From assembly GCA_040006915.1 (NCBI GenBank), contig JBDTWD010000007.1, positions 1 through 48,261 of the forward strand: a stretch of 48,261 bases of DNA, read 5' to 3'. Position 1 is the first letter of the stretch, and the number at the start of each line of letters is the position of its first letter. The notes under the pieces are model-generated. The model was not told the DNA's origin. It saw only the letters and a program-made list of their open reading frames with translations, and did not search any database. Shown here in pieces: positions 1-34,951 of this stretch. Position numbers and translations under genes: made by a program. This stretch comes from Candidatus Woesebacteria bacterium. Its GTDB lineage: Bacteria > Patescibacteriota > Microgenomatia > UBA1400 > UBA12028.

Positions 1-79
1 TCGGAGCATTTTTATTTACTTCAGGAGTTCCCGCAGCTTTTTTGTCTTTTGAAAGTAATGTAAAAAGATTGAGTGCCAT
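1..79 (-). CDS. 5' end of an ORF that runs off the window (MALNLFTLLSKDKKAAGTPEVNKNAP...). By position it could be the ATPase part of a VirB4-like protein.
   Basis: ATG at 79-77 on the minus strand, 1 nt after the stop of the upstream gene (81-83). The frame stays open to the window edge. Only 26 codons are visible. Confidence 0.3.
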   Translation of the reverse strand, partial: MALNLFTLLSKDKKAAGTPEVNKNAP

Positions 80-80
80 A

Positions 81-1178
81 TTATGTGGTGCTTGATCCAC
101 TCGCAGGGGTTGCGGGTGGGATTGGTGGTGTCAAATCACTCCCAACTGATATTGTATCTTCTTTGAGTGCCGGATTGGCTTCAAATACTGTTTGAGTTGG
201 AGATGTAGGTGGAACTGGAGCCATAGGAACTTCCACTGGGGGAGGAGTTGGAGCTTCCATCGGTTTGGGTTCTGTCACCTGGGGAATGGGAGCATGAGCC
301 TCCATGGGTTTTATTTCTTGAGTCATCATTGGTGTTTGTGCCGGTGGGGTTGGAGGAAGTTGCATCTCTGGAATAGGTACGGGTTGTGGGAGTGGAGTTA
401 TGGTCGGTTCACTGGGTGCAACTGGAGCAGCTGATGGGTTTGCTGATGTAGCAGGAACTTGGGCATGGACCATCTCTTCAGGAGGTAAATCCGCGTTCAC
501 TACTGGAGAAGAATATTCTGCCGCTTCACCAACTCGAATTCCCTTTGCCCCGTCAGGATTGTAGATAGTATAGAACAATTGAATTAATTCTTGCGTTTTC
601 ACTTGTCGCAAAAACAAGCCAATACGGGCAAATTGATGCATTAAATGATCACGTCGGGGTTCTAAGTTCGTTAATGATTTTTCCAGAATAGCTGCTTTAT
701 CCAATGGGGCTGCGCTTTTTTTATTTTTGGCATTCATTCCCGGGAGCAGCGAGGATCCTGGCAATAGTCCAGCTTCTAGCGCAGTGTAGCTAATAATAAT
801 GTAGAACTTTTTTTCCAATACATTTCGCTCTTGAACTAGCTGTGCCACAAACTCGCGATATTCTTTAATGTTTTTTCTACTAATCGGATTAAAGGATTTC
901 ATCTCCGCGTGCTTTAACAAGTCCAAATAGGAAGTAACATCTTTTTTTTGCGAGCGAATAACGATTTCAATCGGGAATGAGAGGGAATTTAGCAGTGCCG
1001 CATAGGCATAAATAGCCGCATCTTGTTCTTCTTCGGAATACAAATCAAAGTTAATAGCGGTTGACTGCATCACCATCGAGATGGTGCCATCTTGCAAGAT
1101 GATGACATCGTTGGTTATATCAAATAGCTCAAGGTATTTTTGAGTTGTCGACTGGAGGGAGTTTGGTTGATTAATCAT
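81..1178 (-). CDS. T4SS-associated protein resembling the N-terminal domain of VirB4 (tentative), with a proline-rich C-terminal tail
   Basis: 365-aa ORF. The segment YLELFDITNDVIILQDGTISMVMQSTAINFDLYSEEEQDAAIYAYAALLNSLSFPIEIVIRSQKKD matches, from memory, the N-terminal pattern of Gram-positive VirB4-like ATPases (TcpF/PrgJ/Tn916 Orf16 type). No Walker motifs are present. The last ~150 aa are Pro/Thr/Ala low complexity. It overlaps the upstream gene by ATGA. Confidence 0.55.
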   Translation of the reverse strand: MINQPNSLQSTTQKYLELFDITNDVIILQDGTISMVMQSTAINFDLYSEEEQDAAIYAYAALLNSLSFPIEIVIRSQKKDVTSYLDLLKHAEMKSFNPISRKNIKEYREFVAQLVQERNVLEKKFYIIISYTALEAGLLPGSSLLPGMNAKNKKSAAPLDKAAILEKSLTNLEPRRDHLMHQFARIGLFLRQVKTQELIQLFYTIYNPDGAKGIRVGEAAEYSSPVVNADLPPEEMVHAQVPATSANPSAAPVAPSEPTITPLPQPVPIPEMQLPPTPPAQTPMMTQEIKPMEAHAPIPQVTEPKPMEAPTPPPVEVPMAPVPPTSPTQTVFEANPALKEDTISVGSDLTPPIPPATPASGSSTT

Positions 1179-2230
1179 TTTGCTTTCAGTAACACTGGCG
1201 CCACTACTTGATTATTCAGGACTAGAGAATAATTGTCAAAACTATAGCCATCCTTCTCGACACTAATCCGATAGGATGCTGTATCAAGTGGGGTGACCAC
1301 AGCAAACTGTCCCAATGTGTTAGTTTTCATCGCTCTCACTGGGGTGTGATCGGACTCTCGTAAGATCGTGATAATCGCATTCTCTATAATTTTATTGTCA
1401 CTGCTTACTACCATACCAGCGACCACATTTGGGGTTGTGGGTTTATTAGGGAACGGAAATCCACTTAATGTGGGAACTGGCTGTAAGCCAGTCATTGAGG
1501 TAGTGTCAGGTGCAGCGGAATACACTGTCTCAAGTTTCCCTGGAGTGATTGGAGTATTTGACTCAGCAGCTTTGAGAGGCAAATGTTCAGATGTAACCCC
1601 TTGTTTTTCTGCATATCCAATAGGAGTATTTTGATTGAAGACGGTTGTCTGTGCAGGTGGTGGTGGAGCTGGAACTGGCGCTGGTGATATAGGAGCAGGT
1701 GCAGTTGGGCTTGGGACAACATTCATCTCCAATATTCTTCCAGTTGGAGTAGGACTGGGCTCAGAGAATAATTTGAGCACATCTTCTGCGGCTTTAGTTT
1801 CTTCATCCGAAATGAGTTTCGGCTCGGATGTTGTAGTCTGGATAAATTCTTGCACACGAGATTTGCGAATTGGACCATAATCGACAGAGGGGGTTGTATC
1901 GACAGTGATTGGTTGTGTGTAGGTAAAGGCTCCGGGAACAGTGTTGGTTTTTTTCCAAAAAAACAAGGTTGGTTGATAGATGGATTTGATAAAAGCAAAA
2001 AACCAACGATCCAGTGGTCTGCCTTCCAAGGGAATGAAAGCAAGAGCTGCGCCCAGCAGTGCAGAAATAACCATCAAAGGATATTTAATAATGCCCGGCA
2101 GGTTGGTCATGTTAATTAAGACCGCTCCCAAAATTCCTCCCGCAACTTCCAAGAATTGCTTGAGCGTCATTTGCCCAATCAAGTGAAATTCGTAACCGGT
2201 GACGTTTTGCGGAACTGGATGTTCTTGCAT
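1175..2230 (-). CDS. PrgI-family (VirB3-like) membrane protein with a Pro-rich linker and a C-terminal beta-sandwich-like domain
   Basis: The N-terminus MQEHPVPQNVTGYEFHLIGQMTLKQFLEVAGGILGAVLI plus two TM helices fits the PrgI-family pattern. A PAPISPAPVPAPPPP linker follows. The C-terminus (VVSSDNKIIENAIITILRES...YRISVEKDGYSF) resembles carboxypeptidase-regulatory-like domains. Confidence 0.6.
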   Translation of the reverse strand: MQEHPVPQNVTGYEFHLIGQMTLKQFLEVAGGILGAVLINMTNLPGIIKYPLMVISALLGAALAFIPLEGRPLDRWFFAFIKSIYQPTLFFWKKTNTVPGAFTYTQPITVDTTPSVDYGPIRKSRVQEFIQTTTSEPKLISDEETKAAEDVLKLFSEPSPTPTGRILEMNVVPSPTAPAPISPAPVPAPPPPAQTTVFNQNTPIGYAEKQGVTSEHLPLKAAESNTPITPGKLETVYSAAPDTTSMTGLQPVPTLSGFPFPNKPTTPNVVAGMVVSSDNKIIENAIITILRESDHTPVRAMKTNTLGQFAVVTPLDTASYRISVEKDGYSFDNYSLVLNNQVVAPVLLKAK

Positions 2231-2260
2231 AAGAGTACTAGAGTATGATACCCGATTTCT

Positions 2261-3268
2261 CTAGTTATTTTCTACGGAAGTTTTTACCGCAGGAGTGATA
2301 AGGGTGAGTTGAATAGGAGCAGGAAGAGATGCAAGTTTTACCTCAGCATCAATATTGTAATAGGGGATGACGGTATTAGAGCTTGAGGAGAAGCGATACT
2401 CGACCGTTACTGAGGTGGCGATCAGTTGCTCGACATTTTTAAGATCAAATCCCGACGGATCATCGGTAGCGATTTTCAGGATAGAAAAGTTTCCAGCTTT
2501 TATTTCTCCAGAAACACTTTCGGCCTGCAAAGCTTGGACTTTACTGCTACTACCAACTGAAAAGAAGTATTCAGAAGCAGTAAAGCCTGTGACTTGGTCA
2601 CCACTATCAACAAACACTACAACTGGCGGTTGAGAATCACTGTCACTGTAAAAAGTGAAGCCATTTTTTTCATAGGTGAAAGGAATTAACGCCAAGTTTC
2701 CGGTTTCAGCGGTCGCTTCTTCTGGATGACTATCCGTTTTAGTAAAGAATTCCATGTCGTCTTTTTTTGCCAACAAGCCAGTCGCTCCCAATGTTTGTTT
2801 TACGAAAGTGTTTGCAATGCTAATCGCAGTGTCAGTTTGGAGTTTTTGGACTGTGGCTGCATCAAAATCGCCTGAAACTAGAGTGTTGGAATAATTAAAT
2901 CGTTTGGAGTATGGATCGAAGACTAACGCTTTACGTTTGGTTGTATCCTGCCAAGTGTTTTTAAAACTGGTAGCTTGTAAACCCAGCTTTGGCCCTAGTG
3001 CTTCAAGTGTCAGATGTACTGGTGTGGCTTGGAATACGTCATAGGTAGAAACAACCGGAATTTTAGACAAGTCGATAGAGACTTGTGCATCTTGAAGTGA
3101 CGTTTGCCTAAGTGTGGGGATTGTAGGAACAGGAATGGATGAAAGCGTTTGTTGAGCTGGAGTAAAAACCCGGAGAAAAAAAGCGATGATCGCCAGAAGA
3201 ATAAGTCCTGCAATCAGTAAGCGCAGAGGTTTTTCTTTAAAGTATGTGATAGGTCTGATTCGTGTCAT
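2261..3268 (-). CDS. N-terminally membrane-anchored extracytoplasmic protein. It sits where a VirB8/TcpC-like component would, but function is unknown.
   Basis: I trimmed the track ORF 2261..3397 to ATG 3268 (MTRIRPITYFKEKPLRLLIAGLILLAIIAFFL). The longer version overlaps the upstream gene. It has a single TM helix followed by ~290 aa of soluble sequence. Confidence 0.55.
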   Translation of the reverse strand: MTRIRPITYFKEKPLRLLIAGLILLAIIAFFLRVFTPAQQTLSSIPVPTIPTLRQTSLQDAQVSIDLSKIPVVSTYDVFQATPVHLTLEALGPKLGLQATSFKNTWQDTTKRKALVFDPYSKRFNYSNTLVSGDFDAATVQKLQTDTAISIANTFVKQTLGATGLLAKKDDMEFFTKTDSHPEEATAETGNLALIPFTYEKNGFTFYSDSDSQPPVVVFVDSGDQVTGFTASEYFFSVGSSSKVQALQAESVSGEIKAGNFSILKIATDDPSGFDLKNVEQLIATSVTVEYRFSSSSNTVIPYYNIDAEVKLASLPAPIQLTLITPAVKTSVENN

Positions 3269-3275
3269 AGATCTA

Positions 3276-6200
3276 TTATTGTCCAGCCGACTGTAAAAAG
3301 GTATTGATCTTTCCACAATGATCTGGATACTGAGTGTACGAGGCTTGTGGATCGTCGCGATATCCCGGTCCTGATTTTGTTGCGTTACACAAACCAAAGG
3401 CTTCAGCGAAATCTTCTGTCTTGGTTTTGGTCAGTGGATATGTAGAAATATAGCCTTCAGATTGTGATCCGTAATCGGGGAAAATAGTGCTCCAGTTGCT
3501 GTATTTCTGCTGCAAAATATGGCCTGGTTCATGCCACATCGTCGATCGTCCAAATCGAGTTGGGTTTGAGAACATCAAATCACATACTGCAATTTCGGTA
3601 GCAGAGATAACTTCTGCTCCACCTTGACCAGGAGTTTTGATTGCACATCCTTCTGTAGTGCTGGATGGATCTGGGTCATAGCGAACAATCTTGATCGTTT
3701 GGCCATTTTTACACATAGCTTGTTGAATAAGACTATTGTCCATCATTGCCGTCATCTCTGTCTTGTACTGTGCAAGCTCTGAATCACTCCACGCTTTGGC
3801 ACCATCAACAATCTGCAGACAGGCAATAGTGGCGCGAACTTTCCCTTGAATTGGAGTAGAAATACCGGTTGAACACTGTCCAATCTCGACGTGTTGGTTA
3901 CCCGTGACGATCCATGGACTACTGTAGTTAATGGAGGCGGGAGCACCTGGCAAGATTCCTTCTAACTTACTCGAAACTCCTTTGGAAGCAGATGGACGAT
4001 ATTCATAGTGGAGATGTTGATTGCCGACAACATTGAATTTTGGGTCACAGCTGGTAAAACCCATATGTCCGATTTTGGTACCGGGCTGAATTTGATACGT
4101 TTGTCCTCCTTGGAAAGGAGCTTCAAATTCAGTCATATGACCGTAGAGTAACTGAAATCCTTGATTGGTATTTACAATGGCATGGTTTCCATACACGCAG
4201 CCACCACCACCAGTCATATCTTGAGTATAAAAGGTAACACTGCCACCAAAGGGAGACACGATATCCGAGTTGAGATCTCCATGAATATCAATCGCATCGA
4301 CATTTGAATGACTATACGGTCCCCATGGACCTTGAATGATTGTTCCAGTTGCGGGCCAGCAGGCAAGTACTGGAGGATTTCCAAACACAACTCCTTCTGT
4401 AACTGTAAAGCTATCATTAACAGTTTCTCCACCTTTGATGGCTGTATATGAGACTTTTAAGGTGTTGGTAACGAGGGTGTCATCAAATAATATCACTTCT
4501 CCAGGGCCAGTAAAGCTAATGGTGTACTCGGTTTTTTTCTCTTGATCTGAATTCACAGTACCTTTCAATGTATCAAGTTTGGATTGGTCGGCATTTTTTT
4601 GTGGAGCCTGAGGGGCTCCTTCTTTTCTAGTATAGGTAATGGCATCTGTAACGTCATTAATGTTAACGGTGTATCCATCTTTTGGTTTTATTGTAATAGT
4701 GTAGAGTACATTGACTGGATCTTCAGATACGTCTGGAGTAGCAACTTTGGTAATTGAAAAATACTTGGGTCCTTGTGGGATAACATCTCCAGAAGAAAGA
4801 AAAGCTCCAGGAACAATCATCCCTCCGACTGTTAATGCGACGACAGCCATACCTCCGAAGAGAGTTGGCACGATGACAGCGACCGGAACTGAAAGTGGAG
4901 CGGACGAAAAGGCTCCCAAGGCTGCTGAGGCATTGGTAATTCCGATTCCAGCTGCTTTTGCCGTGCCGGAAGCGATTGAGTTGACGAGAATATTAGAGTT
5001 TACCCCAATTCCAGAGGCCATACCTTGCCCAGCAGAAGCTCCAAAAGTACTAAAGTTTATTCCAGCCGGAGCAGTAGGAAGCCCTCCTCCAAGACTAGCT
5101 TGTACAGCGTTATTGGTAAGAAAACCAATACCTCCTCCGATCACACCACCCACCAAAGCTCCAACCGGACCTCCAATCAAGAAACCAATTCCGGCTCCAG
5201 CTGTTACTGCCCCTCCGATAATGAGTGGAGCAGAATGACCTATAATTCCGGCAATAAATGCCGCTGTTCCTCCAATTCCGATACCGGCTGCTATTGTTGC
5301 GGGACTGCGTACCAGTCTGACAATACTGTTGGCTTTCGCGATATCATTTTTTTTCCTACCCGGGATCAGTCCTTGCAATCTTCCCCAAGCTCCGCGAGGG
5401 GCAGGATCTCTTAAAGCTGATTCTTGTTGCAGTTCTCCGCCGCCAGCTGTGATGGTAATAATTTGTCCATCGTCGGCGAAAGGGACTTCATCGGTTACGC
5501 GTGAAACAATTCTAGTTTCTTGGGGATTGGAACCAAATTGCTGGACGACATAGGTTCCTTCTGGGTAACCGTCAGTCAATTTGTTTTGAATTTCTTCGGT
5601 CCAAGCGTTCGCTCGGTTCATTCGCATTTCAGCTTTAAATGCAGCAAAGTCTCCGGCAAGCCCTTGTTCTACTGATCGCATCAATTTGTCCGCCTCACCT
5701 GGGGTAAGCTCTCTGCCGGCCATTTTTATTATGTCTCTTCGGTGCTGCTCGAGCATTTCTGAGAGAGATTTTTTGTTGGTCGTGTAAATATACGGCCACA
5801 TCTCATTGATAATCTTGGCTGCACTTTCTTTGGCGCTTGGGGCTCCGGTGTTTTCAGCTTGCGGAGAAGTATTAGGATTTACTGCTCCGTGAAATGTAGC
5901 CAGAATTTGAGCTTTGTGTTTTTCCTCTTGTTTTTTGACTCGCTCGACCTCAGCTCGTACCTGTGTTTTGGTACCAAATAAGGTCATGATCGCTTGTTCC
6001 GGAGTCATTCCATCAAAGCTTTTCCCTTCTTGAATGATTCGAAGCAGGGAACTGAGGGTTTCAGTGCTTTGCGGTCCATCAAAGAAAATGTTCTTTCCCG
6101 TCAAAGCTTTGATTTGTCTCTGATAGTCAATTTTCTTTTGTGAGAAAAGTGATTGGAGCTCTCGTCTCGCATCCTCTGAGGCCAAAATTTCTTTTCCAAT

Positions 6201-7304
6201 ATCACCATACCTCGCGGCTATTTCTTCAATGACGCTCGCGGTTAATTTCTCGTCTGGACCAGTTTGCGAATTAACTTCGAGGGAGAGAGCAGCAAACAAT
6301 GCCGCTCCTTCAATTTGTTTTTGGATAAAAGCTCGCTGTCCTGAGTTTTGCGAGAGCATCTCGCGTAACGTTTGCGTTTGTTCGATCGTAATCGGTTTGG
6401 CAGCACCCCATTTTTCTTCCGAATATGTTTTATAGACACCCATCAGATCTTTTAAAAGCTCAGCGTTGGTACTCGAATCAATTCCTAGGGCCGCCAGTTT
6501 GCTTTGCAGTTCATCTGAATCAACCGGTCTGTCGTAGGAATAGATTAAAAGTGATCCGGCTTTGCGTAAGTCCTCAACTTGGCCTGAGACACGATCACGA
6601 GCCTCTGCTACTTGGTTGGCAGTTACTGAGTCTTCACTTGATCCTGGAGCGGATTGAACGGGCGTGTCGGCTTGACCTGCTAATACATGGCTTGTTCCTT
6701 CATATGAATCGTCGTCATCATTTTTTTCAGAAGCTGGACGTTCTTTTTCAAGAGCTTGTGCTGCATTTGGATCAATCTTTTTCACTTTCTCCATTATGTT
6801 TGCCGTGGTATCCATTACCATTTTGGCGGCAATTGCGGTGAATAAAGGATATGCAGGCCACTCATCTTCTGTGTCTTTTCGCGCTTGGATGTTTTGCAAA
6901 ATATCAGAGATATACTGTAACTCACTGCCACGATCCATTAACCCTCGAGCAAATGCCACGGCTTTGTTAAAGCTATCCGCTATTGTTTTCAATTCAGTGG
7001 TTTGAATAATCTGGGCAACAGCTTGGAAAACCACTTCTTCATCAGTTTCGGGAACTAGTGGTGGATCTGAAGGACGCAGGTACTCTTCTTTCCAGATTTT
7101 AACTCCATTAACCCAACTTAATGGAGCTTCCGTGAGCTTGGTGCTTTTGTAAGCATTACTCAGCGCGACATTTCTATCGAAGTGTTTTAATACGAAAGCA
7201 TTGATTTCCTGCCAATATTGATTTAATTGCACGACTGCAGCACTCAGTTCATCAACGGAACTGTTTTGAGAAGAACGAGGAAGTGATGAGGCAGAATCAG
7301 CCAT
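3276..7304 (-). CDS. Large multidomain T4SS-associated cell-wall hydrolase: cytoplasmic N-domain, Gly-rich TM bundle, M23 (LytM) peptidase domain and an HExxH metalloprotease-like domain
   Basis: 1342-aa ORF with no signal peptide. Gly/Ala-rich TM helices lie at about residues 655-835 (nt ~4800-5340). M23 motifs are AIDIHGDLNSD...GNHAIV...GHMGFT...NQHLHYEYR (nt ~3990-4364). MWHEPGHILQ is encoded at nt 3519-3533. Confidence 0.8.
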   Translation of the reverse strand: MADSASSLPRSSQNSSVDELSAAVVQLNQYWQEINAFVLKHFDRNVALSNAYKSTKLTEAPLSWVNGVKIWKEEYLRPSDPPLVPETDEEVVFQAVAQIIQTTELKTIADSFNKAVAFARGLMDRGSELQYISDILQNIQARKDTEDEWPAYPLFTAIAAKMVMDTTANIMEKVKKIDPNAAQALEKERPASEKNDDDDSYEGTSHVLAGQADTPVQSAPGSSEDSVTANQVAEARDRVSGQVEDLRKAGSLLIYSYDRPVDSDELQSKLAALGIDSSTNAELLKDLMGVYKTYSEEKWGAAKPITIEQTQTLREMLSQNSGQRAFIQKQIEGAALFAALSLEVNSQTGPDEKLTASVIEEIAARYGDIGKEILASEDARRELQSLFSQKKIDYQRQIKALTGKNIFFDGPQSTETLSSLLRIIQEGKSFDGMTPEQAIMTLFGTKTQVRAEVERVKKQEEKHKAQILATFHGAVNPNTSPQAENTGAPSAKESAAKIINEMWPYIYTTNKKSLSEMLEQHRRDIIKMAGRELTPGEADKLMRSVEQGLAGDFAAFKAEMRMNRANAWTEEIQNKLTDGYPEGTYVVQQFGSNPQETRIVSRVTDEVPFADDGQIITITAGGGELQQESALRDPAPRGAWGRLQGLIPGRKKNDIAKANSIVRLVRSPATIAAGIGIGGTAAFIAGIIGHSAPLIIGGAVTAGAGIGFLIGGPVGALVGGVIGGGIGFLTNNAVQASLGGGLPTAPAGINFSTFGASAGQGMASGIGVNSNILVNSIASGTAKAAGIGITNASAALGAFSSAPLSVPVAVIVPTLFGGMAVVALTVGGMIVPGAFLSSGDVIPQGPKYFSITKVATPDVSEDPVNVLYTITIKPKDGYTVNINDVTDAITYTRKEGAPQAPQKNADQSKLDTLKGTVNSDQEKKTEYTISFTGPGEVILFDDTLVTNTLKVSYTAIKGGETVNDSFTVTEGVVFGNPPVLACWPATGTIIQGPWGPYSHSNVDAIDIHGDLNSDIVSPFGGSVTFYTQDMTGGGGCVYGNHAIVNTNQGFQLLYGHMTEFEAPFQGGQTYQIQPGTKIGHMGFTSCDPKFNVVGNQHLHYEYRPSASKGVSSKLEGILPGAPASINYSSPWIVTGNQHVEIGQCSTGISTPIQGKVRATIACLQIVDGAKAWSDSELAQYKTEMTAMMDNSLIQQAMCKNGQTIKIVRYDPDPSSTTEGCAIKTPGQGGAEVISATEIAVCDLMFSNPTRFGRSTMWHEPGHILQQKYSNWSTIFPDYGSQSEGYISTYPLTKTKTEDFAEAFGLCNATKSGPGYRDDPQASYTQYPDHCGKINTFLQSAGQ

Positions 7305-7317
7305 GCCTTCGATTATA
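7305..7317 (-). promoter_or_regulatory. -10 box TATAAT, 7 nt upstream of the ATG of the 1342-aa hydrolase gene
   Basis: Minus strand reads GGGTATAAT-CGAAGGC-ATG. Confidence 0.45.
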
Positions 7318-7320
7318 CCC

Positions 7321-7545
7321 TTAGTTGAAGTCTTCTTGCACGATGGTTGTGGAGTTTAGATCTGCATTTAAATCAGTCAGCCCATCATCTTTTGCCATTG
7401 GTGACGCTTGAATTTGATCCGCTGACTGCGTGGTTTCCGGAGCAGGAGATTGAACACCGTTGTTAGTCTGACCGGTTGTTGAGATATTGGTTTTACATCC
7501 AGCCAAGAATATGCCAGCGAGAGCGATGAAAAGAATTTTTTTCAT
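7321..7545 (-). CDS. small lipoprotein
   Basis: MKKILFIALAGIFLAGCKT carries the lipobox LAGC. An AAGGAG Shine-Dalgarno lies 7 nt upstream. Confidence 0.7.
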   Translation of the reverse strand: MKKILFIALAGIFLAGCKTNISTTGQTNNGVQSPAPETTQSADQIQASPMAKDDGLTDLNADLNSTTIVQEDFN

Positions 7546-7557
7546 AAGTATCTCCTT

Positions 7558-8118
7558 TTAATTTGTAGCCAGTGCTTTGAGTGCGTCTGCTAACAATTGA
7601 TGCACGTGAGCAAATTCGCTGCGCGCTTTTTGTGCGGCATCGATAGCTGTCTTCACTTCTGGCTTTTGTACATCCCAGGTGCTCACTGTGATCGCAGCAA
7701 ACAAATCCACCGCTTTTTGTCCATCACTGATCGCGACAGTCAATTGAGTTTTTGCTTGATCTAAAGCAGTTTGGGCGCTGGTGACATTTTTCCCTTCCGT
7801 TTTTTCTTTATCGATTCGCGTTTGAATTCTGTCGGCAATGTTGCCAAGACGTTCAGTGTACCAGTTGAAGTGGGTTTCTAGTCTTTTAGCGTGCATCTTG
7901 GCACGCTCAGAACGAAATGTTTGTCGGGATGCGGAAATAGACGCGCGCAGTTCTTTGCGCTCATTTTGATTACCGGTACGTATATCTTTTCTCGCATCCT
8001 TGATTTCTTGAGTGCGGATTTGAACAGGACGAGGAGAGGTGTCTGTAGCCAGGACAATTCCAGTGCTGACCGTAAATACAGCGAATGCGGATACAACTGC
8101 AAGAAAAGTGTTTTTCAT
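7558..8118 (-). CDS. secreted alpha-helical protein, unknown function
   Basis: Trimmed to ATG 8118 (MKNTFLAVVSAFAVFTVSTGIVLA signal peptide). GGAGG lies 8 nt upstream. The sequence is rich in R/K/E/Q and looks helical. Confidence 0.6.
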   Translation of the reverse strand: MKNTFLAVVSAFAVFTVSTGIVLATDTSPRPVQIRTQEIKDARKDIRTGNQNERKELRASISASRQTFRSERAKMHAKRLETHFNWYTERLGNIADRIQTRIDKEKTEGKNVTSAQTALDQAKTQLTVAISDGQKAVDLFAAITVSTWDVQKPEVKTAIDAAQKARSEFAHVHQLLADALKALATN

Positions 8119-21933: not shown

Positions 21934-21958
21934 TTATTCATTTCAATTCAACACAAGG

Positions 21959-22360: not shown

Positions 22361-22433
22361 AGCACTTCTCCTTAGATAATATTAGGTATGCTACTAGAGC
22401 TATTCTACCATGTTAGGCAACAAAGCCGCTCGA

Positions 22434-22453
22434 GTCAAGCAGGAAAGCTTGAC
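22434..22453 (-). other. perfect 7-bp stem-loop immediately after the P3 stop
   Basis: GTCAAGC-N6-GCTTGAC, 1 nt downstream of the stop at 22455, with no U-tract. It could be an mRNA processing or stability element ahead of P2. Confidence 0.35.
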
Positions 22454-22454
22454 A

Positions 22455-23012: not shown

Positions 23013-23016
23013 AGAA

Positions 23017-23445: not shown

Positions 23446-23449
23446 AGGT

Positions 23450-23833: not shown

Positions 23834-23834
23834 A

Positions 23835-24206: not shown

Positions 24207-24218
24207 AGGACTTGACTA

Positions 24219-24563
24219 TTATAGCGTTGAATTCAAAATCGGTACACCAGTGATCCTTTGGATGATTTGAATGATCCAGAATGCGGCAAAAATAACTAAA
24301 AATCCAATCACCGCTCCAGTAATCTGACCTTTCCCTTGTTCGACACTTTTGGCATTCCCTCCAGAAGAGATGATGGCAAATCCGCCACCAATCAAGAGGA
24401 AAAGTAAAATAATTCCGGCGATAATAAAGGCTAGAGGAACGAGAAGATTTAGAAAAGAAGAGATTGTGGCGTATTTCCCTTGTGCTCCTCCGACTGCGTT
24501 TACTCCCCCTTGGTCCAAGAACAGCTGATCTCCAATATTAAAAGCGAACAGTAATGCAGACAT
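24219..24563 (-). CDS. T4SS pilin-fold protein P7 (first gene of the array)
   Basis: Two TM helices flanking IISSGGNAKSVEQGKGQITGAVIGFLVIF. TATACT lies 7 nt upstream of the ATG. Confidence 0.7.
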   Translation of the reverse strand: MSALLFAFNIGDQLFLDQGGVNAVGGAQGKYATISSFLNLLVPLAFIIAGIILLFLLIGGGFAIISSGGNAKSVEQGKGQITGAVIGFLVIFAAFWIIQIIQRITGVPILNSTL

Positions 24564-24576
24564 ACACAGTAGTATA
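24564..24576 (-). promoter_or_regulatory. -10 box TATACT, 7 nt upstream of the P7 ATG (pilin array promoter, leaderless-type)
   Basis: Minus-strand TATACT at 24576-24571, spacer ACTGTGT, ATG at 24563. Confidence 0.45.
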
Positions 24577-24586
24577 CAATATATCT
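24575..24586 (+). promoter_or_regulatory. -10 box TACAAT, 6 nt upstream of the sigma-factor ATG (leaderless-type)
   Basis: TACAAT 24575-24580, spacer ATATCT, ATG 24587. It overlaps the divergent -10 box by 2 nt. Confidence 0.45.
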
Positions 24587-25132
24587 ATGGTTTTTTCGAA
24601 TGAAGCAGCTCTGATTGTGGCATTAAAAAGCGGTGAAAGCTCCATGGTTAGCCGATGGTATGAGGAGTCAAAACGAGCCCTCCTGGCTTTCTTCGTGCAT
24701 CAAGTGAGTAATGAAGCGGATGCTCAGGAGCTGGTTCATGACACGTATATGTCATGCCTTGCTTCACTGCCACTGTTTAGAGGAGAGTCGGGCCTATGGA
24801 GTTTTATGATTTCCATTGCTCGCCATGAACTGGCAGACTATTGGCGCAAAAAGTACGCCAAAAAAGCCATTGCGATGCTCCCATTCGGTCAAGAATTATT
24901 AGATACCGTGGAGCGTCCTCAGGGCAGTGAGCCACAAACCCAAGAAGTACAAGAATTACTACAAAATCTTCCCGGTGATATTGCTGAACTTTTAGCTCTA
25001 AAATACATTGACGGCTTATCAGTCAAAGAATTGGCCAAGAAATATAAATTAAGTTTTGCGGCGATGCAAAGTAAGTTGTATCGAGCTAAAGAAGTATTTA
25101 AAGAACAGTATGAACGAAACCCAATTTCTTAA
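24587..25132 (+). CDS. ECF-type RNA polymerase sigma-70 family factor
   Basis: Region 2: ELVHDTYMSCLASLPLFRGESGLWSFMISIARHELADYWRKK. Region 4 HTH: LALKYIDGLSVKELAKKYKLSFAAMQSKLYRAKE. I prefer ATG 24587 to 24554, which overlaps the divergent pilin gene. Confidence 0.85.
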   Translation: MVFSNEAALIVALKSGESSMVSRWYEESKRALLAFFVHQVSNEADAQELVHDTYMSCLASLPLFRGESGLWSFMISIARHELADYWRKKYAKKAIAMLPFGQELLDTVERPQGSEPQTQEVQELLQNLPGDIAELLALKYIDGLSVKELAKKYKLSFAAMQSKLYRAKEVFKEQYERNPIS

Positions 25133-25322
25133 AAACCTCCAGCAGAAAGCCAAAGTCCAGGCATCGGTTGATGGATCATCACCTTTGCCGCAGTGGGCAA
25201 GACCACTTGCATCACTTGTCGGTTTACACTATTGGCAATTTTTGTTGGTGATTTCCTGTATTATTGCCATATTTATTAGTGTGTGGCTTTTTCCAGAAGT
25301 ATATGCAACGACTCGTTTCTAA
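25110..25322 (+). CDS. putative anti-sigma factor (single-pass membrane protein)
   Basis: 70 aa with one TM helix (YWQFLLVISCIIAIFISVWLF). It overlaps the 3' end of the sigma gene, a typical sigma/anti-sigma arrangement. The call rests on position only. Confidence 0.45.
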   Translation: MNETQFLKNLQQKAKVQASVDGSSPLPQWARPLASLVGLHYWQFLLVISCIIAIFISVWLFPEVYATTRF

Positions 25323-25617
25323 AAGTACCAGCTTTTCCTATGGTGTCATAGCCACAATTTTGGGGTTTTTAACGCACCCCTATCAAACCATGCAAAAAGT
25401 GGTGGATAAACACATCCCACTGCTCTTCGTGTTCTTTCCTGCAGTTTTTTGTCTGATTGGTTGGCTTACTGCCAAAGAATTATCCTGGTTTTTCTTAGAT
25501 CTAATCCCTTTGGTGGGATTATGGTGGTTTTTGGAAGTTTGGTGGCTGACGTTCTGGGGATTGTGGCAAGTAACACTTCTGTATCTTTTCTGGCGGTTTT
25601 CTTCTGTACAGGAATGA
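25303..25617 (+). CDS. small polytopic membrane protein, unknown function
   Basis: About three hydrophobic, Trp-rich helices. It overlaps the preceding ORF by 20 nt. Confidence 0.5.
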   Translation: MQRLVSKSTSFSYGVIATILGFLTHPYQTMQKVVDKHIPLLFVFFPAVFCLIGWLTAKELSWFFLDLIPLVGLWWFLEVWWLTFWGLWQVTLLYLFWRFSSVQE

Positions 25618-29607: not shown

Positions 29608-30300
29608 ATGCAAAAACCCACTTTACCCAAACACATTGCTATCATCATGGATGGAAACCGTCGGTGGGCACGGCAAAACAAATTAAAAGCCTTGCAAGGA
29701 CATTCGTATGTCGTTGATCATTGTATCGAGCCATTGGTTGATCGATGTATTGAGCTTGGTATTCCATATTTAACCTTGTGGGCTTTTAGTACCGAAAACT
29801 GGGAACGGGATCAAGAGGAAGTTTCAGGATTGATGAACATCTTTCGTCGAGCATTTCAAAAGAAAGCCGAGGATCTGCACAAAAAAGGTGTGCGACTCAA
29901 TGTTTTAGGCGACATCGATGCATTTCCCAAAGACATTGCTGCGCAAGCAAAAGAATGGGTGAAGTTATCGACCACAAACACCAATATTACCGTATCATTT
30001 GCGTTAAACTACGGTGGACGAGCAGAAATATTGCATTCAGTCAACAAACTTTTAAAATCAAATCATCAATTGCCAATTCAGTCGGAAGACTTCGAAGAGA
30101 ATCTGTATACTGTCGGTCTACCTGATCCAGATTTATTGATCAGACCAGGTGGAGAGAAGCGTCTTTCTGGCTTCCTACCTTGGCAAACGGTTTATACTGA
30201 GCTGTATTTTACCGATATTTTAATGCCTGACTTCACCCCCGAGAAACTAGATGAGGCACTCGAAGAGTACGCCAAACGACAGCGTCGTTTTGGACACTAG
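29608..30300 (+). CDS. uppS: undecaprenyl-diphosphate synthase (cis-prenyltransferase)
   Basis: PKHIAIIMDGNRRWAR...LTLWAFSTENWERD...NYGGRAEI...DLLIRPGGEKRLSGFLPWQ. Confidence 0.95.
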   Translation: MQKPTLPKHIAIIMDGNRRWARQNKLKALQGHSYVVDHCIEPLVDRCIELGIPYLTLWAFSTENWERDQEEVSGLMNIFRRAFQKKAEDLHKKGVRLNVLGDIDAFPKDIAAQAKEWVKLSTTNTNITVSFALNYGGRAEILHSVNKLLKSNHQLPIQSEDFEENLYTVGLPDPDLLIRPGGEKRLSGFLPWQTVYTELYFTDILMPDFTPEKLDEALEEYAKRQRRFGH

Positions 30301-30593
30301 AGAATGCTAATTCCAAAGATTCTCTGCACAATCTGGGCCAGCCAGAATGAAGCAAACAGAAGAAGAAACCCAACTAGTGCTGCCGTAATCCGTTCTTTAC
30401 CTGCTTGTTGGGATTTCGGGTCCGCTGCTCCGGTTAACATTTCAAATCCACCCCAAATGAGCATAATAAAGAGAATAAGACCGCCGAATGAAAATAAGTA
30501 GGGAAGTAACTTGGAAATAATCCCTCTAGGAGTTGTCAGTTGTACATCTGGTCCTGCTGCTCCAAAAATTGCTTGATTAAGTTTAGTAAAGGT
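30297..30593 (-). repeat. copy 1 of a ~295-bp direct repeat encoding the shared C-terminal pilin module of P8/P9
   Basis: Aligns with 30935-31231. The 32-mer ATAATCCCTCTAGGAGTTGTCAGTTGTACATC is identical at 30517-30548 and 31155-31186. By hand alignment, 87 of 98 encoded residues are identical. Confidence 0.85.
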
Positions 30594-30890
30594 TGCACTG
30601 TTTACCCCCGGTCCAGTACCATCAGGGTTTTGACCGAATTGTTGGCACAGTTGTGAGGAAGTAGGAGGTCCGCAATAGTAGGCAACTGTTCCATCAGCAC
30701 AGGTCGTCGTTTGTGCAGTACAGACAGCAGGCTGACTCCCACCGTTACTGTCGACGACGCTTTGTAAGCAGGTAACAGGAACAGTACTCCACTGTCCACA
30801 GTTCACAGACGCAGCCTGAGCAAAACTATGCTGTCCACACAATAAAAAAATCCCAACCACAATCAGTAGTATTTTTCTTGTCTTTTTCAT
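30297..30890 (-). CDS. secreted Cys-rich domain fused to a T4SS pilin module (P8)
   Basis: Trimmed to MKKTRKILLIVVGIFLLCGQHSFAQA. An 8-Cys N-domain of about 75 aa is followed by WGGFEMLTGAADPKSQQAGKERITAALVGFLLLF. Confidence 0.75.
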   Translation of the reverse strand: MKKTRKILLIVVGIFLLCGQHSFAQAASVNCGQWSTVPVTCLQSVVDSNGGSQPAVCTAQTTTCADGTVAYYCGPPTSSQLCQQFGQNPDGTGPGVNSATFTKLNQAIFGAAGPDVQLTTPRGIISKLLPYLFSFGGLILFIMLIWGGFEMLTGAADPKSQQAGKERITAALVGFLLLFASFWLAQIVQRIFGISIL

Positions 30891-30934
30891 TGCATAGCTA
30901 GTATGCCTTAAACTGAAGAAAGTTACAGAATCAT

Positions 30935-31231
30935 TTAGAGGATGCTGATTCCAAAGACCTTTTGCACAATCTGTGCTAGCCAGAAGGAGGAGAAGAGTAG
31001 CAAGAAACCAATAATGGCGGCCGTAATTCGTTCTTTTCCTGCTTGTTGGGATTTCGGGTCTGCTGCCCCGGTTAACATTTCGAATCCACCCCAAAGGATC
31101 ATGATAAACAAAATCAGTCCTGCAAAGGAAAAGAGATAGGGAAGCAATTTTGAGATAATCCCTCTAGGAGTTGTCAGTTGTACATCAGGCCCAGCTGCCC
31201 CAAAAATTGCGGCATTTAATTTGGAAAACAA
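30935..31231 (-). repeat. copy 2 of the ~295-bp direct repeat (P9 C-terminal pilin module)
   Basis: See copy 1. Confidence 0.85.
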
Positions 31232-31867
31232 CAGTGGCGTTGCTCCCTCAGTTGGATTAATGGGGGCATTTGAAATTGGTGGAATCGTTGGCTGTGTTGC
31301 TGAACACCCAGAAGTAGTATTCACTGCCCATCCACAACAGCGTCTTCCCGCTATTGGTGGATTGTATTCTGCATTGGACTGACAGTCACATGTTTCCGTT
31401 GCCGTGTTATATGCATGTCCACAAGTTTTTGCGATGGTTGCCGGTGCGGTTGCATATCCTTGGCAGCTCGTACCCTGATCGTTATTGGCTTGGCCGATAA
31501 CTCCTTGCAAAACATAGGTCGCTCCAGGTTGAGGCGCCGTGTTTGCAAAGGCGTTTGGAGCAGAGACTGCACAAGTGTAGGTAACGGTACTTGTTGTACT
31601 CAGTTGTTTGGTGCACTCAGACTCATTGATTCCGGTTTGATGAATAATGGTTCCAGAGCCCGTTAAAAATATCTCAAGACCAATAGGGAAGTGCTGACTG
31701 GGGAAAGGAGAGTTTGTTTGAAACGTAACGGTGGCGTTATATCCAGTAGAGGTAATTGAAGTGTTTGAGACTCCACAACTAGAGGCAAAAACAGCGGTTG
31801 GTAAAACGAAACCGACAAAAAGAAGAACGGTGAGTGACAAGATAGTGGTGGTGAAAATCTTCTTCAT
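30935..31867 (-). CDS. secreted Cys-rich domain fused to a T4SS pilin module (P9)
   Basis: Trimmed to MKKIFTTTILSLTVLLFVGFVLPTAVFA. A Cys/Thr-rich N-domain of about 185 aa is followed by a C-terminal module nearly identical to that of P8. Confidence 0.75.
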   Translation of the reverse strand: MKKIFTTTILSLTVLLFVGFVLPTAVFASSCGVSNTSITSTGYNATVTFQTNSPFPSQHFPIGLEIFLTGSGTIIHQTGINESECTKQLSTTSTVTYTCAVSAPNAFANTAPQPGATYVLQGVIGQANNDQGTSCQGYATAPATIAKTCGHAYNTATETCDCQSNAEYNPPIAGRRCCGWAVNTTSGCSATQPTIPPISNAPINPTEGATPLLFSKLNAAIFGAAGPDVQLTTPRGIISKLLPYLFSFAGLILFIMILWGGFEMLTGAADPKSQQAGKERITAAIIGFLLLFSSFWLAQIVQKVFGISIL

Positions 31868-31871
31868 ACGA

Positions 31872-33059
31872 TTATGTTCCAAATCCAGGGATATGGAGGA
31901 GTGTTACTCCGATAAACTGCAGAATAATGATTGAGAAGATCACAAAGAACAGTCCCATAACTGCGGCTGTAACCATTTCTTGTCCTTCTTTGACTCGGGT
32001 TGGATCTCCACTACTCGTTGTCAGTAAGAAAGCTCCATAGAGGATGGAGAGGAGGACGAAACCTCCCGCAATTCCAAGGCCAATACGTAAGAATGAGGTG
32101 ACAATTCCTTCCGCAGAAGTTTTCACACATCCAAACGCTGTCCAGTATCCTTGGCTGTTCGGATCAGTGATGGTATCACCACCACCTATACATTTGCGGC
32201 ATTCAACTTGATCAGGAGGAGCTGCTTGATTACAGAGGATAAAGGCTGGAGCTGCGCCCCCAGGATTTGGGATAGGAAAATTATCGGTTGGGTCATCATC
32301 TTGTTCCAAAGAACTTTTTAGGACATTGAACGTAGTAGAACAATTTCGATGATCAGTGAGTGTATTTAGAGAGCCGCTTCCGTTCCCCACTTCTAATGCG
32401 TAGTCTCCATCTGGCCATTTTTCCATGATCCCACCTGTTAGAACCTCTCCATTAAAAGTGAGAGGTACCTTTGCCAGAAGAGGATTACCTGGTATGCGAA
32501 TATATGCGGCGTATCCTTGAGAATGATTTAAAGGACCTCCAGGGACGGTAATATTGACGTTAATCAGATCACCATTGCGGGTGAGGCCAACCTGCGGGGT
32601 TCCGCAGTTATAGGCAACTGGTTTTTGGAATCGTACGTTTGTACTACAGACAAGAGCATCGGCTACACCAGCTTCTCTTTCGATTTGAACATGAAAGATA
32701 GCAACGGTGTCACTTTGTTTATTAAACATGGACGCTAAGTTACTTGTAATATCAACTGATAGATTTCCGTTTGATAGCTGTGAGGAGGTCAAAGGGAAAA
32801 ATTTATCACTAAGAGGTACTGTTGGATCGAATGCATGAATAAAGTAATCGTCAGCTCCATCAGTGGCTGGTGCACCATCTTTTTTTACGTCATTTGCAGA
32901 AAGCCTGACGGCTTCAGGGTTAATAAAGTAATCGTTATTAGCGGGGGTATTAGTTTGCAGGGTACAGTTATCTGCGGCAAAGGCTTGAGTTTTCTCCATC
33001 GCAAAAAATAGCCCTGTGAAAAGGAAAACGGCAACCGCAAATTTGCCTAGAAGCTTCAT
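31872..33059 (-). CDS. secreted ~300-aa domain fused to a T4SS pilin module (P10)
   Basis: Start at MKLLGKFAVAVFLFTGLFFA (track start 33077 is also possible). The C-terminus reads YGAFLLTTSSGDPTRVKEGQEMVTAAVMGLFFVI between two TM helices. Confidence 0.7.
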   Translation of the reverse strand: MKLLGKFAVAVFLFTGLFFAMEKTQAFAADNCTLQTNTPANNDYFINPEAVRLSANDVKKDGAPATDGADDYFIHAFDPTVPLSDKFFPLTSSQLSNGNLSVDITSNLASMFNKQSDTVAIFHVQIEREAGVADALVCSTNVRFQKPVAYNCGTPQVGLTRNGDLINVNITVPGGPLNHSQGYAAYIRIPGNPLLAKVPLTFNGEVLTGGIMEKWPDGDYALEVGNGSGSLNTLTDHRNCSTTFNVLKSSLEQDDDPTDNFPIPNPGGAAPAFILCNQAAPPDQVECRKCIGGGDTITDPNSQGYWTAFGCVKTSAEGIVTSFLRIGLGIAGGFVLLSILYGAFLLTTSSGDPTRVKEGQEMVTAAVMGLFFVIFSIIILQFIGVTLLHIPGFGT

Positions 33060-33116
33060 ACCTTGTAATTTTACCATTCTCTTGTATTTAAGGGGAAGGA
33101 AAACGCAAATACTGGT

Positions 33117-33428
33117 TTACTCTGTTAACGTTTGCAGGTTCTCGGTATTATCTTGGAAAACTTTAGAAACTTGCTCTGCAGACTCTTCCTCACTTTGGGT
33201 AAGCTTCTCTTCTACATCATCAGCTGCGTCAGCAGCATCAATCAAGGTTTGCCCTGACTGGACTTCTGTTGCTTGGACTTTTGCCACAAATGTATTAAAA
33301 CGCTCAAAATCAGCAGGCGAAAGATCCTCAGGATACCCAGAAAGTTCGGCGACTAGTATATCGAGTACGTCACTTTCGACCTCTTTTGTTTCTTTAATTT
33401 CAGTAATCAATTGTTGTTTTGTAGGCAT
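33117..33428 (-). CDS. small, very acidic hypothetical protein
   Basis: 103-aa ORF rich in D/E, in an operon position upstream of P10. Confidence 0.5.
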   Translation of the reverse strand: MPTKQQLITEIKETKEVESDVLDILVAELSGYPEDLSPADFERFNTFVAKVQATEVQSGQTLIDAADAADDVEEKLTQSEEESAEQVSKVFQDNTENLQTLTE

Positions 33429-33451
33429 ACGGTTTCCTTTTTTAAAGTACG

Positions 33452-34951
33452 TTATTTTGCATCAATAAATGAGGCAATACGCTTTCGTAGCCCCGACAAA
33501 AATTTTCCGTTATTCTTTCGTTTTTCTCCCTCAGAACGAGCTTTTTGGGCAGCCAAGAAATCTTTGTCAGCGCTGGTTTCTCCTAACTCTGCTTTCGTAT
33601 TCAGTTTGGTTTGTAGCTTTTGAATTCTTTCATCAAGTTTAGCGATAGCTTCAGTTTTTTCTACTAGAGCACCTTGAGAAACTTCCCCACGAAGGAGGGC
33701 ATCGACTGATAAATGAAGTTGTCTTGATTCATATTCTCTTTGGTTTTCGAGGCCTTTGAGATATAAGCTTGTCCCGAGATTGAGTGTATCGAGGACTTTT
33801 TGCGTTACATCCGCACGCTTTTGATAGAGAGTACCCTCTACTTTAAGGTATATGTTTTCTACGGCACCAGTAGCTGTAGCCATATTTCGTTCGAACCCAT
33901 CGGCAATGGTGTTTCGCTTCTGGGCGATCATTACACCAATATTGTCGATCCTGTATTCCACGTATCCAACAGATCGGTCGAAAGCTGCTTTCGTGTGTTC
34001 GGGTAATGCGTGGAGAGTTCCAACAACTGCTCCTGCTGTATCAACTGAATTTTGAACAAATGTTACAAATGTTTCAGCTCCCTTGTCTTTCTTAGCTTTA
34101 GCTGCAGCTTGGCGTTCAGCAATTTTCTTTGCTCGTTCTTCCACTTTTGTATCTCTCACTTCTGCTTTTCTCTCCCAAGCTCTGAGGTTTGCACTTGCGG
34201 TGGGAGTCGCTTCTGGAGAAGGAGGCTGAGCTCCTGGAGTTGAATTTCTTTGGGCTTCTAATGCTTGTAGAGTACTTCTTAAAGTGTTGAGTCTGGTTTC
34301 GTATCTGGTTCTCATTTCATCCCCAACTGGGAGAGCATTTACGTAGACCTCATTTTCCTGAATATCGGCTTGCACAGTTGCGATTTCACGTTCGAGTGGA
34401 GGGGTCGTAGGCTCAACTTCTGTCTGGATAGCGTCAACTGCTGGGGCCGCAGGTATAACTTCAGGTGTGGCAGCAGTTTCAGCTCTTGGTACAGCCAGAT
34501 TGGGATACCTTACTTCTTGATTCGTGCTGGGTTGTGTGCCTGCGCTCGCAAAAGTCGTCAAATCCGGATCTGGAAGTTCTCTTGTTGCGTCGGTATTGAG
34601 AGTGTCTGGAAGAAGGCTTTCTAAACTTGGTAATTCATCATCATCGGAGGGCTTGGGGGCTTGAGTTTCCTGATATTGTTTTAGGCGACTTTTTTCTGGA
34701 GGGGCCGATTGTGTTTCACTACTTGGGGCAGTGATACTCGCAAATTTAGCAGCTATACGTTCTTTATCTTTTGCGATTTTTTCAGTCTCAGAAGTTGTCT
34801 CACCATTCGTTGGAGTGGATGGAGCTCTTTTTAATATCCAATCCTTAAAAAAACTTCTCGCAGATTTTCGTTCAGAGGGTGGAGTACTTTGATCGTTTGT
34901 TTCTTTTCGAAGATCTTTCAGTTTTGGAGGTTGCGAATCTTGAGGTTCCAT
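33452..34951 (-). CDS. hypothetical protein with a disordered Pro/Ser/Thr/Glu-rich N-half and a helical C-half
   Basis: Trimmed to ATG 34951 (MEPQDSQPPK). The longer track version would overlap the divergent gene. An AAGGA SD lies 5 nt upstream, and TGCTATAAT lies further upstream. Confidence 0.6.
   Translation of the reverse strand: MEPQDSQPPKLKDLRKETNDQSTPPSERKSARSFFKDWILKRAPSTPTNGETTSETEKIAKDKERIAAKFASITAPSSETQSAPPEKSRLKQYQETQAPKPSDDDELPSLESLLPDTLNTDATRELPDPDLTTFASAGTQPSTNQEVRYPNLAVPRAETAATPEVIPAAPAVDAIQTEVEPTTPPLEREIATVQADIQENEVYVNALPVGDEMRTRYETRLNTLRSTLQALEAQRNSTPGAQPPSPEATPTASANLRAWERKAEVRDTKVEERAKKIAERQAAAKAKKDKGAETFVTFVQNSVDTAGAVVGTLHALPEHTKAAFDRSVGYVEYRIDNIGVMIAQKRNTIADGFERNMATATGAVENIYLKVEGTLYQKRADVTQKVLDTLNLGTSLYLKGLENQREYESRQLHLSVDALLRGEVSQGALVEKTEAIAKLDERIQKLQTKLNTKAELGETSADKDFLAAQKARSEGEKRKNNGKFLSGLRKRIASFIDAK

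Follow-up and report, generated by a model that had tools for sequence, protein, structure and literature searches.

The T4SS (type IV secretion system) of the cultivated saccharibacterium Southlakia epibionticum (SEML1_0006-0019) is closest to the conjugative systems of Gram-positive bacteria (Wang 2023, PMC10633639). It includes an essential series of predicted pilins and is without recognizable coupling or relaxase proteins, and transposon sequencing (Tn-seq) in Southlakia showed that the T4SS is needed for epibiotic growth on the host (PMC10633639). In a survey of the phylum, the VirB4 proteins of Patescibacteria formed a clade related to the mating-pair formation type MPF-FATA, with TrsD as the most abundant partner, a VirB3 of the PrgI type and M23-containing VirB1 candidates; the systems were located on the chromosome and relaxases were nearly always absent (Quinonero-Coronel 2025, PMC12102498). 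The survey reported 441 VirB2 arrays of 2-11 genes, chiefly in Microgenomatia and Saccharimonadia and with ~25% identity, and put the scarcity of VirB6 in Microgenomatia down to divergence; the paper is silent on sigma factors, including those of the extracytoplasmic function (ECF) type, on SpoIID and on pilin fusions (PMC12102498). The same points are made in a FEMS review of 2025, which speculates on a pilus conduit (PMC12857230). Here, we describe a T4SS locus in a 48,261-bp stretch of Candidatus Woesebacteria (contig JBDTWD010000007.1, positions 1-48,261, assembly GCA_040006915.1), hereafter called the window. An earlier note on this DNA had presented the combination of Gram-positive-type parts with pilin arrays as a surprise. 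The combination is real, but it has already been published (PMC10633639, PMC12102498, PMC12857230), and as it was described in 2023-2025 the locus is a further example of a known system.

Open reading frame (ORF) calls and profile scans placed three groups of T4SS genes on the minus strand of the window, at positions 1-8118 (module A), 15618-24563 (module B) and 30297-34951 (module C), with the gene content and coordinates originally assigned to them. Inside each module the genes overlap or are separated by 1-94 nt, which is typical of operons. The three modules very probably represent one chromosomal T4SS of the Patescibacteria-specific kind in a member of Microgenomatia. The system, which joins Gram-positive-type parts to an expanded repertoire of VirB2-type pilins, is probably non-conjugative. 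A chromosomal, non-conjugative surface T4SS was also the reading of the earlier note, and it is supported by the component matches, by synteny and by the lack of a relaxase in the ~54 kb examined, that is, the window and a 5.5-kb leftward extension.

The extension comes from Logan contig L001, which is 100% identical to positions 1-1668 of the window and runs 5.5 kb further left; an identical contig is present in Logan run SRR26386622. As had been suggested, the VirB4 ATPase is encoded to the left of position 1. The gene starts at window position 79 on the minus strand, its first 26 codons lie in the window (1-79) and the remainder is on L001, where the protein has 668 aa. It belongs to the MPF-FATA, CD1110-like class of VirB4, scoring 386.9 bits against NCBIfam conju_CD1110 (cutoff 325) at profile positions 185-734 only, and it also matches Pfam P-loop_TraG, AAA_10 and CagE_TrbE_VirB. 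Downstream of VirB4, L001 encodes a 195-aa membrane protein, a VTT-domain protein, an FeS-assembly protein and RNase J; neither VirD4 nor a relaxase follows VirB4 in the 5.5-kb extension. The adjoining ORF (81-1178, minus strand), whose stop codon lies 1 nt from the virB4 start, matches positions 113-235 of VirB4_plasma (E = 1.9e-7), positions 11-123 of CD1110 and, weakly, TrsD (E = 2e-4); it gave no Pfam match in our own scan, and its precomputed Pfam annotation is TraC-like (PF26593). Since VirB4 matches positions 185-734 only and this ORF only N-terminal positions, VirB4 is split here, and its N-terminal domain is a separate, free-standing TrsD-like protein with a Pro-rich tail, in agreement with its first description as VirB4-N-like. 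Next to it, positions 1175-2230 (minus strand) encode a membrane protein with a C-terminal beta-sandwich extension, which was recognized correctly as PrgI/VirB3-like (Pfam PrgI, 33.6 bits against a cutoff of 27). The same ORF reaches 28.5 bits for CarboxypepD_reg, under the cutoff of that family.

Gene order in related genomes was analyzed in two sets, 80 loci around relatives of VirB4 and 80 around relatives of the VirB6-like protein of module B. PrgI, TrsD and VirB4 are found together in 73-75 of the 80 VirB4 loci (the TrsD-like gene adjoins VirB4 in 75, and PrgI lies upstream of TrsD-VirB4 in 73), often preceded by genes for an M23 protein and an anchored protein of ~330 aa. In the second set, 64 of the 80 loci have pilin genes (at most ten) that are upstream of the VirB6-like gene and co-oriented with it, and in 17 loci the M23 protein, the anchored protein, PrgI, TrsD and VirB4 are encoded 7-10 kb downstream of it, likewise on its strand. 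The full cluster is contiguous in L049, L120, L124 and L142. The order in L049 and L124 is pilins, a large secreted protein, the VirB6-like protein, a convergent ORF, a large ORF in the position of the M23 protein (missing from L049), PrgI, TrsD and VirB4. Because the parts are contiguous and co-oriented in other Microgenomatia genomes, the three modules of the window are best seen as one system. Their dispersed layout is common to the closest relatives: the window, L083-L085 and L002 have in common the order ECF sigma factor, pilins, 1204-aa protein, VirB6-like protein, exonuclease, FtsH, tRNA-binding protein and helical protein, which argues for a stable chromosomal organization and against a recent insertion. 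That the modules are unlike a recently acquired island had been remarked before; the GC content is indeed even (0.39-0.47 along the whole window), flanking repeats are lacking and the housekeeping flanks are conserved across species. Where the closest relatives of VirB4 and of the VirB6-like protein have informative titles, these are Microgenomates, Woesebacteria, Pacebacteria, Shapirobacteria and generic Patescibacteria metagenome-assembled genomes (MAGs). Many MAG records that clearly contain T4SS genes of Patescibacteria bear the title 'uncultured Pseudomonadales' or 'Gammaproteobacteria', and two bear archaeal names; such titles look like placeholder or erroneous taxon labels.

The VirB6-like gene (15873-17741, minus strand, with the ORF reaching 17768) encodes a divergent polytopic membrane protein of 622 aa from the ATG (631 aa for the ORF), which has five or more transmembrane stretches besides a signal-anchor. 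Its family has at least 419 homologues, which are from Patescibacteria wherever the source is named and none of which has a Pfam annotation, and at the sequence level the protein matched no Pfam, NCBIfam or PDB profile. An AlphaFold model made from an alignment of 48 homologues had a mean predicted local distance difference test (pLDDT) score of 70, with values of 80-95 for the membrane core. Its seven best PDB matches were all TrwI/VirB6 chains of R388 (best E = 7.6e-4, probability 1.0), and no other PDB match had E < 0.1. The original VirB6-like call was thus strengthened by the fold search, with TrwI as its only match, by topology and by synteny, but it found no match in sequence; the predicted fold supports the identification as VirB6 without proving it, and synteny and polytopic topology agree with it. 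The divergent family probably accounts for the 'scarcity' of VirB6 in Microgenomatia. Directly downstream of the VirB6-like gene, an 81-aa ORF (15618-15863, minus strand) was identified by BLASTP as a duplicate of the cytoplasmic C-terminal tail of the VirB6-like protein, with 42% identity over 77 residues to residues 550-626 (E = 3e-16).

Upstream of the VirB6-like gene, module B carries seven VirB2-like pilin genes in tandem (21452-24563, minus strand), at 21452-21886, 21959-22360, 22455-23012, 23017-23445, 23450-23833, 23835-24206 and 24219-24563, and module C adds three long pilin fusions (30297-30890, 30935-31867 and 31872-33077, minus strand), each consisting of an N-terminal domain that is secreted and a C-terminal T4SS_pilin hairpin. 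All ten ORFs proposed as VirB2/TrbC-fold pilins match Pfam T4SS_pilin (PF18895), five of them above its gathering score of 26.6 bits, and one array pilin also matches Pfam TrbC (TrbC/VirB2). When the window was scanned in six frames with a hidden Markov model (HMM) made from the ten pilin cores, exactly these ten ORFs were returned (E = 1e-34 to 4e-25, and E < 1e-25 for each gene of the array) and no eleventh pilin. Each of the ten has two hydrophobic helices flanking a (T/S)xGG(D/N)xxK loop, and the cores have a mean identity of 28%, with the exception of two module-C paralogues. These two long fusions have a common 293-nt 3' repeat (81% DNA identity, 91% identity in the core protein). Two of the array pilins (22455-23012 and 23017-23445) have Cys-rich C-terminal extensions after the second helix, which the other five lack.

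Pilin genes of the second kind are not peculiar to the window. In 22 related loci, SpoIID and the VirB6-like gene enclose 2-3 pilin genes, whose products in L124 have 300 and 244 aa, and L080 carries a 411-aa pilin fusion. There are two conserved pilin modules, an array of short pilins that is linked to an ECF sigma factor and a group of 2-3 genes that is linked to SpoIID, and the window has both. In established VirB2 pilus structures the pilin termini face outward. By analogy, the N-terminal domains of the long fusions could be displayed on a filament. Such a filament would not exist if the 'pilins' were two-helix membrane proteins, such as wall or membrane stabilizers or Sec-secreted surface proteins, which share the VirB2 hairpin in a system without a pilus. 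Half of the T4SS_pilin matches are indeed under the gathering score, a comparable array of Nanosynbacter TM7x was earlier named 'Sec secreted array' (PMC12102498), and a Gram-positive T4SS pilus has never been seen (PMC12857230). We nevertheless consider this explanation unlikely, as the same hairpin and loop motif recur in all ten proteins, five of which pass the curated Pfam cutoff and one of which matches TrbC/VirB2 too, as the linkage to the VirB6-like gene and VirB4 is tight and wide, and as the pilin array is essential in Southlakia (PMC10633639).

The presumed peptidoglycan-directed part of the system is represented first of all by a 1342-aa protein of module A (3276-7304, minus strand), in which the M23/HExxH hydrolase of the earlier description was confirmed by a Peptidase_M23 match at residues 1003-1104 (37.9 bits). 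The protein has a cytoplasmic N-terminal half, a Gly-rich membrane region with transmembrane-like stretches at 669-726 and 794-839, the extracellular M23 domain and a C-terminal HExxH stretch; it matches a metallo-endopeptidase of PHROG and has no PDB sequence match. In 22 and 15 related loci, a homologue is encoded in the interval from the VirB6-like gene to PrgI. Between the M23 gene and PrgI, positions 2261-3268 (minus strand) encode a 335-aa anchored extracytoplasmic protein with one transmembrane stretch (residues 12-40), and in ~25 related loci an anchored protein of 320-340 aa lies just upstream of PrgI. This protein is encoded in a position suited to a VirB8/TcpC-type subunit and could be that subunit. 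Sequence and profile searches with it gave only noise, with no Pfam or PDB match; a word-indexed homologue search returned the protein itself alone, a profile search added two proteins, and the structure model from the resulting three sequences had a pLDDT of 38.

A second candidate hydrolase is the 1204-aa protein encoded between the VirB6-like gene and the pilin array (17787-21401, minus strand), which has a signal peptide and three modules. It has 102 relatives among 1.84 billion representatives and no Pfam, NCBIfam, PHROGs or PDB sequence match, and a Pfam scan of 37 of its relatives found a GDSL lipase in two and otherwise nothing. The C-terminal module conserves W-x-E-E-S-G. Its profile has as best PDB matches 4fdy and 4hpe (CTn1-Orf17), which are wall hydrolases of Tn916-like elements, at non-significant E values of 0.23 and 0.48; in these alignments W-x-E-E-S-G pairs with the catalytic ESGG of the hydrolases. 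The C-terminal module may be a lysozyme-like domain of the VirB1 type. The earlier designation as a putative glycanase holds as far as secretion is concerned, but glycanase activity is only plausible, given a motif and non-significant profile matches. The N-terminal module (residues ~35-335) conserves a GNELNNL motif, and its profile has no PDB match. Where F-T-E-(Y/F)-G occurs in many relatives, the window protein and those nearest to it have Gly, Asn or Gln for the Glu. Provided that the module is enzymatic at all, it may lack activity in this lineage. An interpretation of the module as GH-A-like, from 'GNE...TE(Y)G', was not retained; it is speculative, and the second Glu is Gly here.

Four further ORFs lie with the T4SS genes and are conserved in the closest relatives only or nowhere, which makes their membership of the system uncertain. 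The lipoprotein noted in module A (74 aa, 7321-7545, minus strand) has a LAGC lipobox and a weak LPAM_1 match and is limited to the closest relatives, e.g. L085. Its neighbour, described earlier as a secreted helical protein (186 aa, pI 9.9, 7558-8118, minus strand), does have an N-terminal hydrophobic segment or signal-anchor and is secreted or anchored, but it has no significant family match, and homologues were found only in L002, L054 and L085. In module C, the two proteins previously called acidic (103 aa, pI 4.05, and ~499 aa, pI 5.84; 33117-34951, minus strand) are encoded upstream of the pilin fusions, in the same direction and tightly spaced with them; they have no family matches and no homologue among the 160 related loci.

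Two plus-strand genes accompany the T4SS genes of module B. An ECF-type sigma factor (24554-25132; Pfam Sigma70_ECF, r2 and r4_2) is divergent from the first pilin gene, whose start it overlaps by 10 nt, and in 24 of the 80 VirB6-like loci a homologue likewise adjoins the first pilin gene directly and in divergent orientation. The ECF sigma factor is a candidate regulator. It is followed by a gene for a 117-aa membrane protein (25264-25617, plus strand). On the other side of the module, a 1044-aa cytoplasmic protein (12483-15617, plus strand) is convergent on the VirB6-like gene and is the positional counterpart of a conserved neighbour: a large convergent ORF of 291-1505 aa comes right after the VirB6-like gene in 65 of 66 loci, and 32 of these 65 form one sequence family. 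Neither the 1044-aa protein nor eight of the conserved convergent ORFs have a Pfam match, and comparison of the 1044-aa protein with the convergent ORFs (phmmer, family HMM, BLASTP and hhalign) gave one weak match and showed no homology. The plus-strand genes interleaved with the modules, all taken for housekeeping genes at first, are therefore mostly but not entirely so, as the ECF sigma factor and the convergent ORF keep their place beside the T4SS genes.

Several observations weigh against the assignment of the three modules to one T4SS of this kind and function. The function is argued by analogy with Saccharimonadia, and neither a pilus nor a substrate or a host interaction has been seen in any member of Microgenomatia, this organism included. 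A profile comparison (hhalign) of the VirB6-like family with R388 TrwI found nothing, and the VirB6 call depends on a moderate model (pLDDT 70) with low TM-scores of 0.35-0.39 by target. The five pilin ORFs under the gathering score have 18-25 bits (E = 2e-5 to 2.4e-3), and no VirB8-like subunit (PrgL/TraM/TcpC fold) was identified by sequence or profile search. Finally, ~54 kb were seen, and the phylum survey puts homologues of the type IV coupling protein (T4CP) far from virB4 in many Patescibacteria genomes (PMC12102498), so that a distant coupling protein or relaxase is possible.

This last point bears on whether the modules are an ordinary integrative conjugative element (ICE) or the remnant of an integrated plasmid, with the relaxase, coupling protein and att sites beyond the sequenced stretch. 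The VirB4 is of the CD1110 conjugative-transposon type, and the best matches of the 1204-aa C-terminal domain, non-significant as they are, are hydrolases of Tn916-like elements, as would fit such an element. However, Pfam and NCBIfam scans found no relaxase, VirD4/coupling protein, integrase or transposase domain in the large ORFs of the window or in the 5.5-kb extension, and a repeat search found no att-like or module-flanking direct repeats and no oriT-like repeats; the earlier statement that relaxase, VirD4-type coupling protein and origin-like repeats are absent holds for the window and the extension alike. The composition is even, and the modules lie amid housekeeping genes in an order conserved between species. 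Relaxases are known from 103 Patescibacteria genomes only, and 15 such genes are close to virB4 (PMC12102498). An ICE or plasmid remnant is accordingly highly improbable, and with no relaxase, T4CP, integrase or flanking repeats in the sequence examined and with conserved flanks the mobile-element reading was rejected.

A system without a relaxase or coupling protein in the sequence seen could also serve DNA uptake, like Helicobacter ComB or archaeal Ced, and import host DNA as a source of nucleotides, which Patescibacteria are unable to make (PMC12857230). The VirB4 is weakly similar to archaeal CedB (E = 8e-14) and CedD (E = 4e-7), far under the cutoffs, and T4SS loci of the class ABY1 co-localize with comF, recG and radA (PMC12102498). 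None of the three modules, however, is adjoined by competence or recombination genes. In Southlakia, both ComEC and type IV pili are needed for competence; viability is unaffected when ComEC is lost, whereas the T4SS is essential (PMC12857230). We regard DNA uptake as an improbable role, and prefer a non-conjugative T4SS of the Patescibacteria kind.

With the T4SSs of the Patescibacteria clade the locus has in common an MPF-FATA-like VirB4 with an adjacent TrsD-like protein, PrgI/VirB3, a putative VirB6, hydrolases of the M23 or possibly the lysozyme type, tandem divergent VirB2-like pilins (~25-28% identity), the lack of a nearby relaxase or T4CP and the chromosomal location. It differs from them in a putative VirB6 too divergent for the published HMMs, in ten pilins in two sets, three of which are long N-terminal fusions, and in the ECF sigma factor linked to the array. 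Compared with the Southlakia system, it belongs to Microgenomatia and not to Saccharimonadia, and the cluster is spread in three modules over 35 kb, split by housekeeping genes. The Gram-positive MPF-FATA systems (pCF10 Prg/Pcf, pGO1 Trs and C. difficile CTn2 CD1110) have the same VirB4 family, TrsD, PrgI and large multi-domain wall hydrolases, and like the window system they are without an outer-membrane core. They have a relaxase, a coupling protein, an oriT and adhesins such as PrgB and are without VirB2 pilins, whereas the window has pilins, and parts for DNA processing are missing from the sequence seen. The Gram-negative MPF-T systems (R388 Trw, Agrobacterium VirB) resemble the locus in their VirB2-fold pilins and in the VirB6-like fold, which is nearest to R388 TrwI. 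In contrast to these, VirB7, VirB9, VirB10 and VirB11 were undetected in the window (no Pfam or NCBIfam match in the scanned ORFs), VirB4 is without its N-domain, the organism is monoderm and the pilin genes are far more numerous. The virB2 arrays of Bartonella and Anaplasma also consist of tandem divergent VirB2 paralogues, thought to diversify the exposed surface (PMC12102498). Their owners, however, are diderm intracellular animal pathogens with a complete VirB/D4, and fusions of 200-400 aa to the pilin domain have not been described there.

The plus strand of the window also has clear housekeeping genes, those for a tRNA-binding protein, FtsH, a 5'-3' exonuclease and a NUDIX protein, three mevalonate-pathway kinases/decarboxylase and UppS, as well as SpoIID, a DUF5657 protein, SmpB, NusA and IF2. 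The GC skew is positive throughout positions 1-48261, which suggests that the plus strand is the leading one; in that case replication would run in the direction of the housekeeping genes, and the three T4SS modules would be on the lagging strand. The RNA genes are a tmRNA and three tRNA-Ser. The tmRNA gene (40108-40508, minus strand) adjoins smpB and scores 94.8 bits with Rfam, and it was missed by ARAGORN. A class-II tRNA (46010-46095, plus strand) was called tRNA-Ser(ACT), with A at position 34 and the anticodon loop CTACTAA. A34 is unusual in a bacterial serine tRNA. The body of this tRNA is nearly identical to that of tRNA-Ser(TGA) (41014-41101, minus strand), and a normal tRNA-Ser(GCT) is also present (48177-48261). 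Long repeats in the window are limited to one pair of tRNA-Ser genes and to two pilin genes whose 3' halves are duplicates.

If the three modules act as one machine, VirB4/TrsD, PrgI and the VirB6-like protein would form the membrane translocon, and the M23 peptidase, possibly together with a putative lysozyme-like domain of the 1204-aa protein, would open the peptidoglycan. VirB4 would pull pilins from the membrane, and by polymerizing them it would build a pilus or a conduit through the monoderm wall. The divergent paralogues and the outward N-terminal domains of the long pilins might vary the filament surface for different host cells, and the machine may serve the host-dependent lifestyle by attachment, protein delivery or uptake of host molecules. 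As no relaxase or coupling protein accompanies the system, such a lifestyle is probably its purpose rather than plasmid-type conjugation, in agreement with proposals made for S. epibionticum, a saccharibacterium in culture whose T4SS is essential.

Taken jointly, the details of the locus would fit a distinct sub-variant of the T4SS in Microgenomatia, with a divergent VirB6, two pilin classes and a convergent protein, a combination that we put forward tentatively and hold to be rather doubtful as a whole. The 'missing' VirB6 would then be the divergent family of 520-670 aa, the short-pilin array would be under a dedicated divergent ECF sigma factor, the SpoIID-linked long pilins would carry their secreted N-terminal domains as built-in adhesins on the filament, and the large, fast-evolving cytoplasmic protein convergent to the VirB6-like gene would be a further component or a substrate. 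Should this be true, the ECF sigma factor would switch the composition of the pilus on envelope or host-contact signals. The points that go slightly beyond the published papers are the support for VirB6 from its fold and from synteny, the ECF sigma factor at pilin arrays, the SpoIID-linked long pilins, the convergent ORF and the duplicate of the VirB6 tail.

To our knowledge, no T4SS but the patescibacterial one is essential for the growth of its owner, and among those of monoderms it alone possibly builds a VirB2-type pilus. The locus leaves this general picture of the system unchanged. It provides a well-resolved example from Microgenomatia in which VirB6, scarce in published HMM surveys, can be placed by fold and synteny, and its ECF sigma factor, long pilin fusions, convergent ORF and duplicated VirB6 tail are leads for a class that has no cultivated model.

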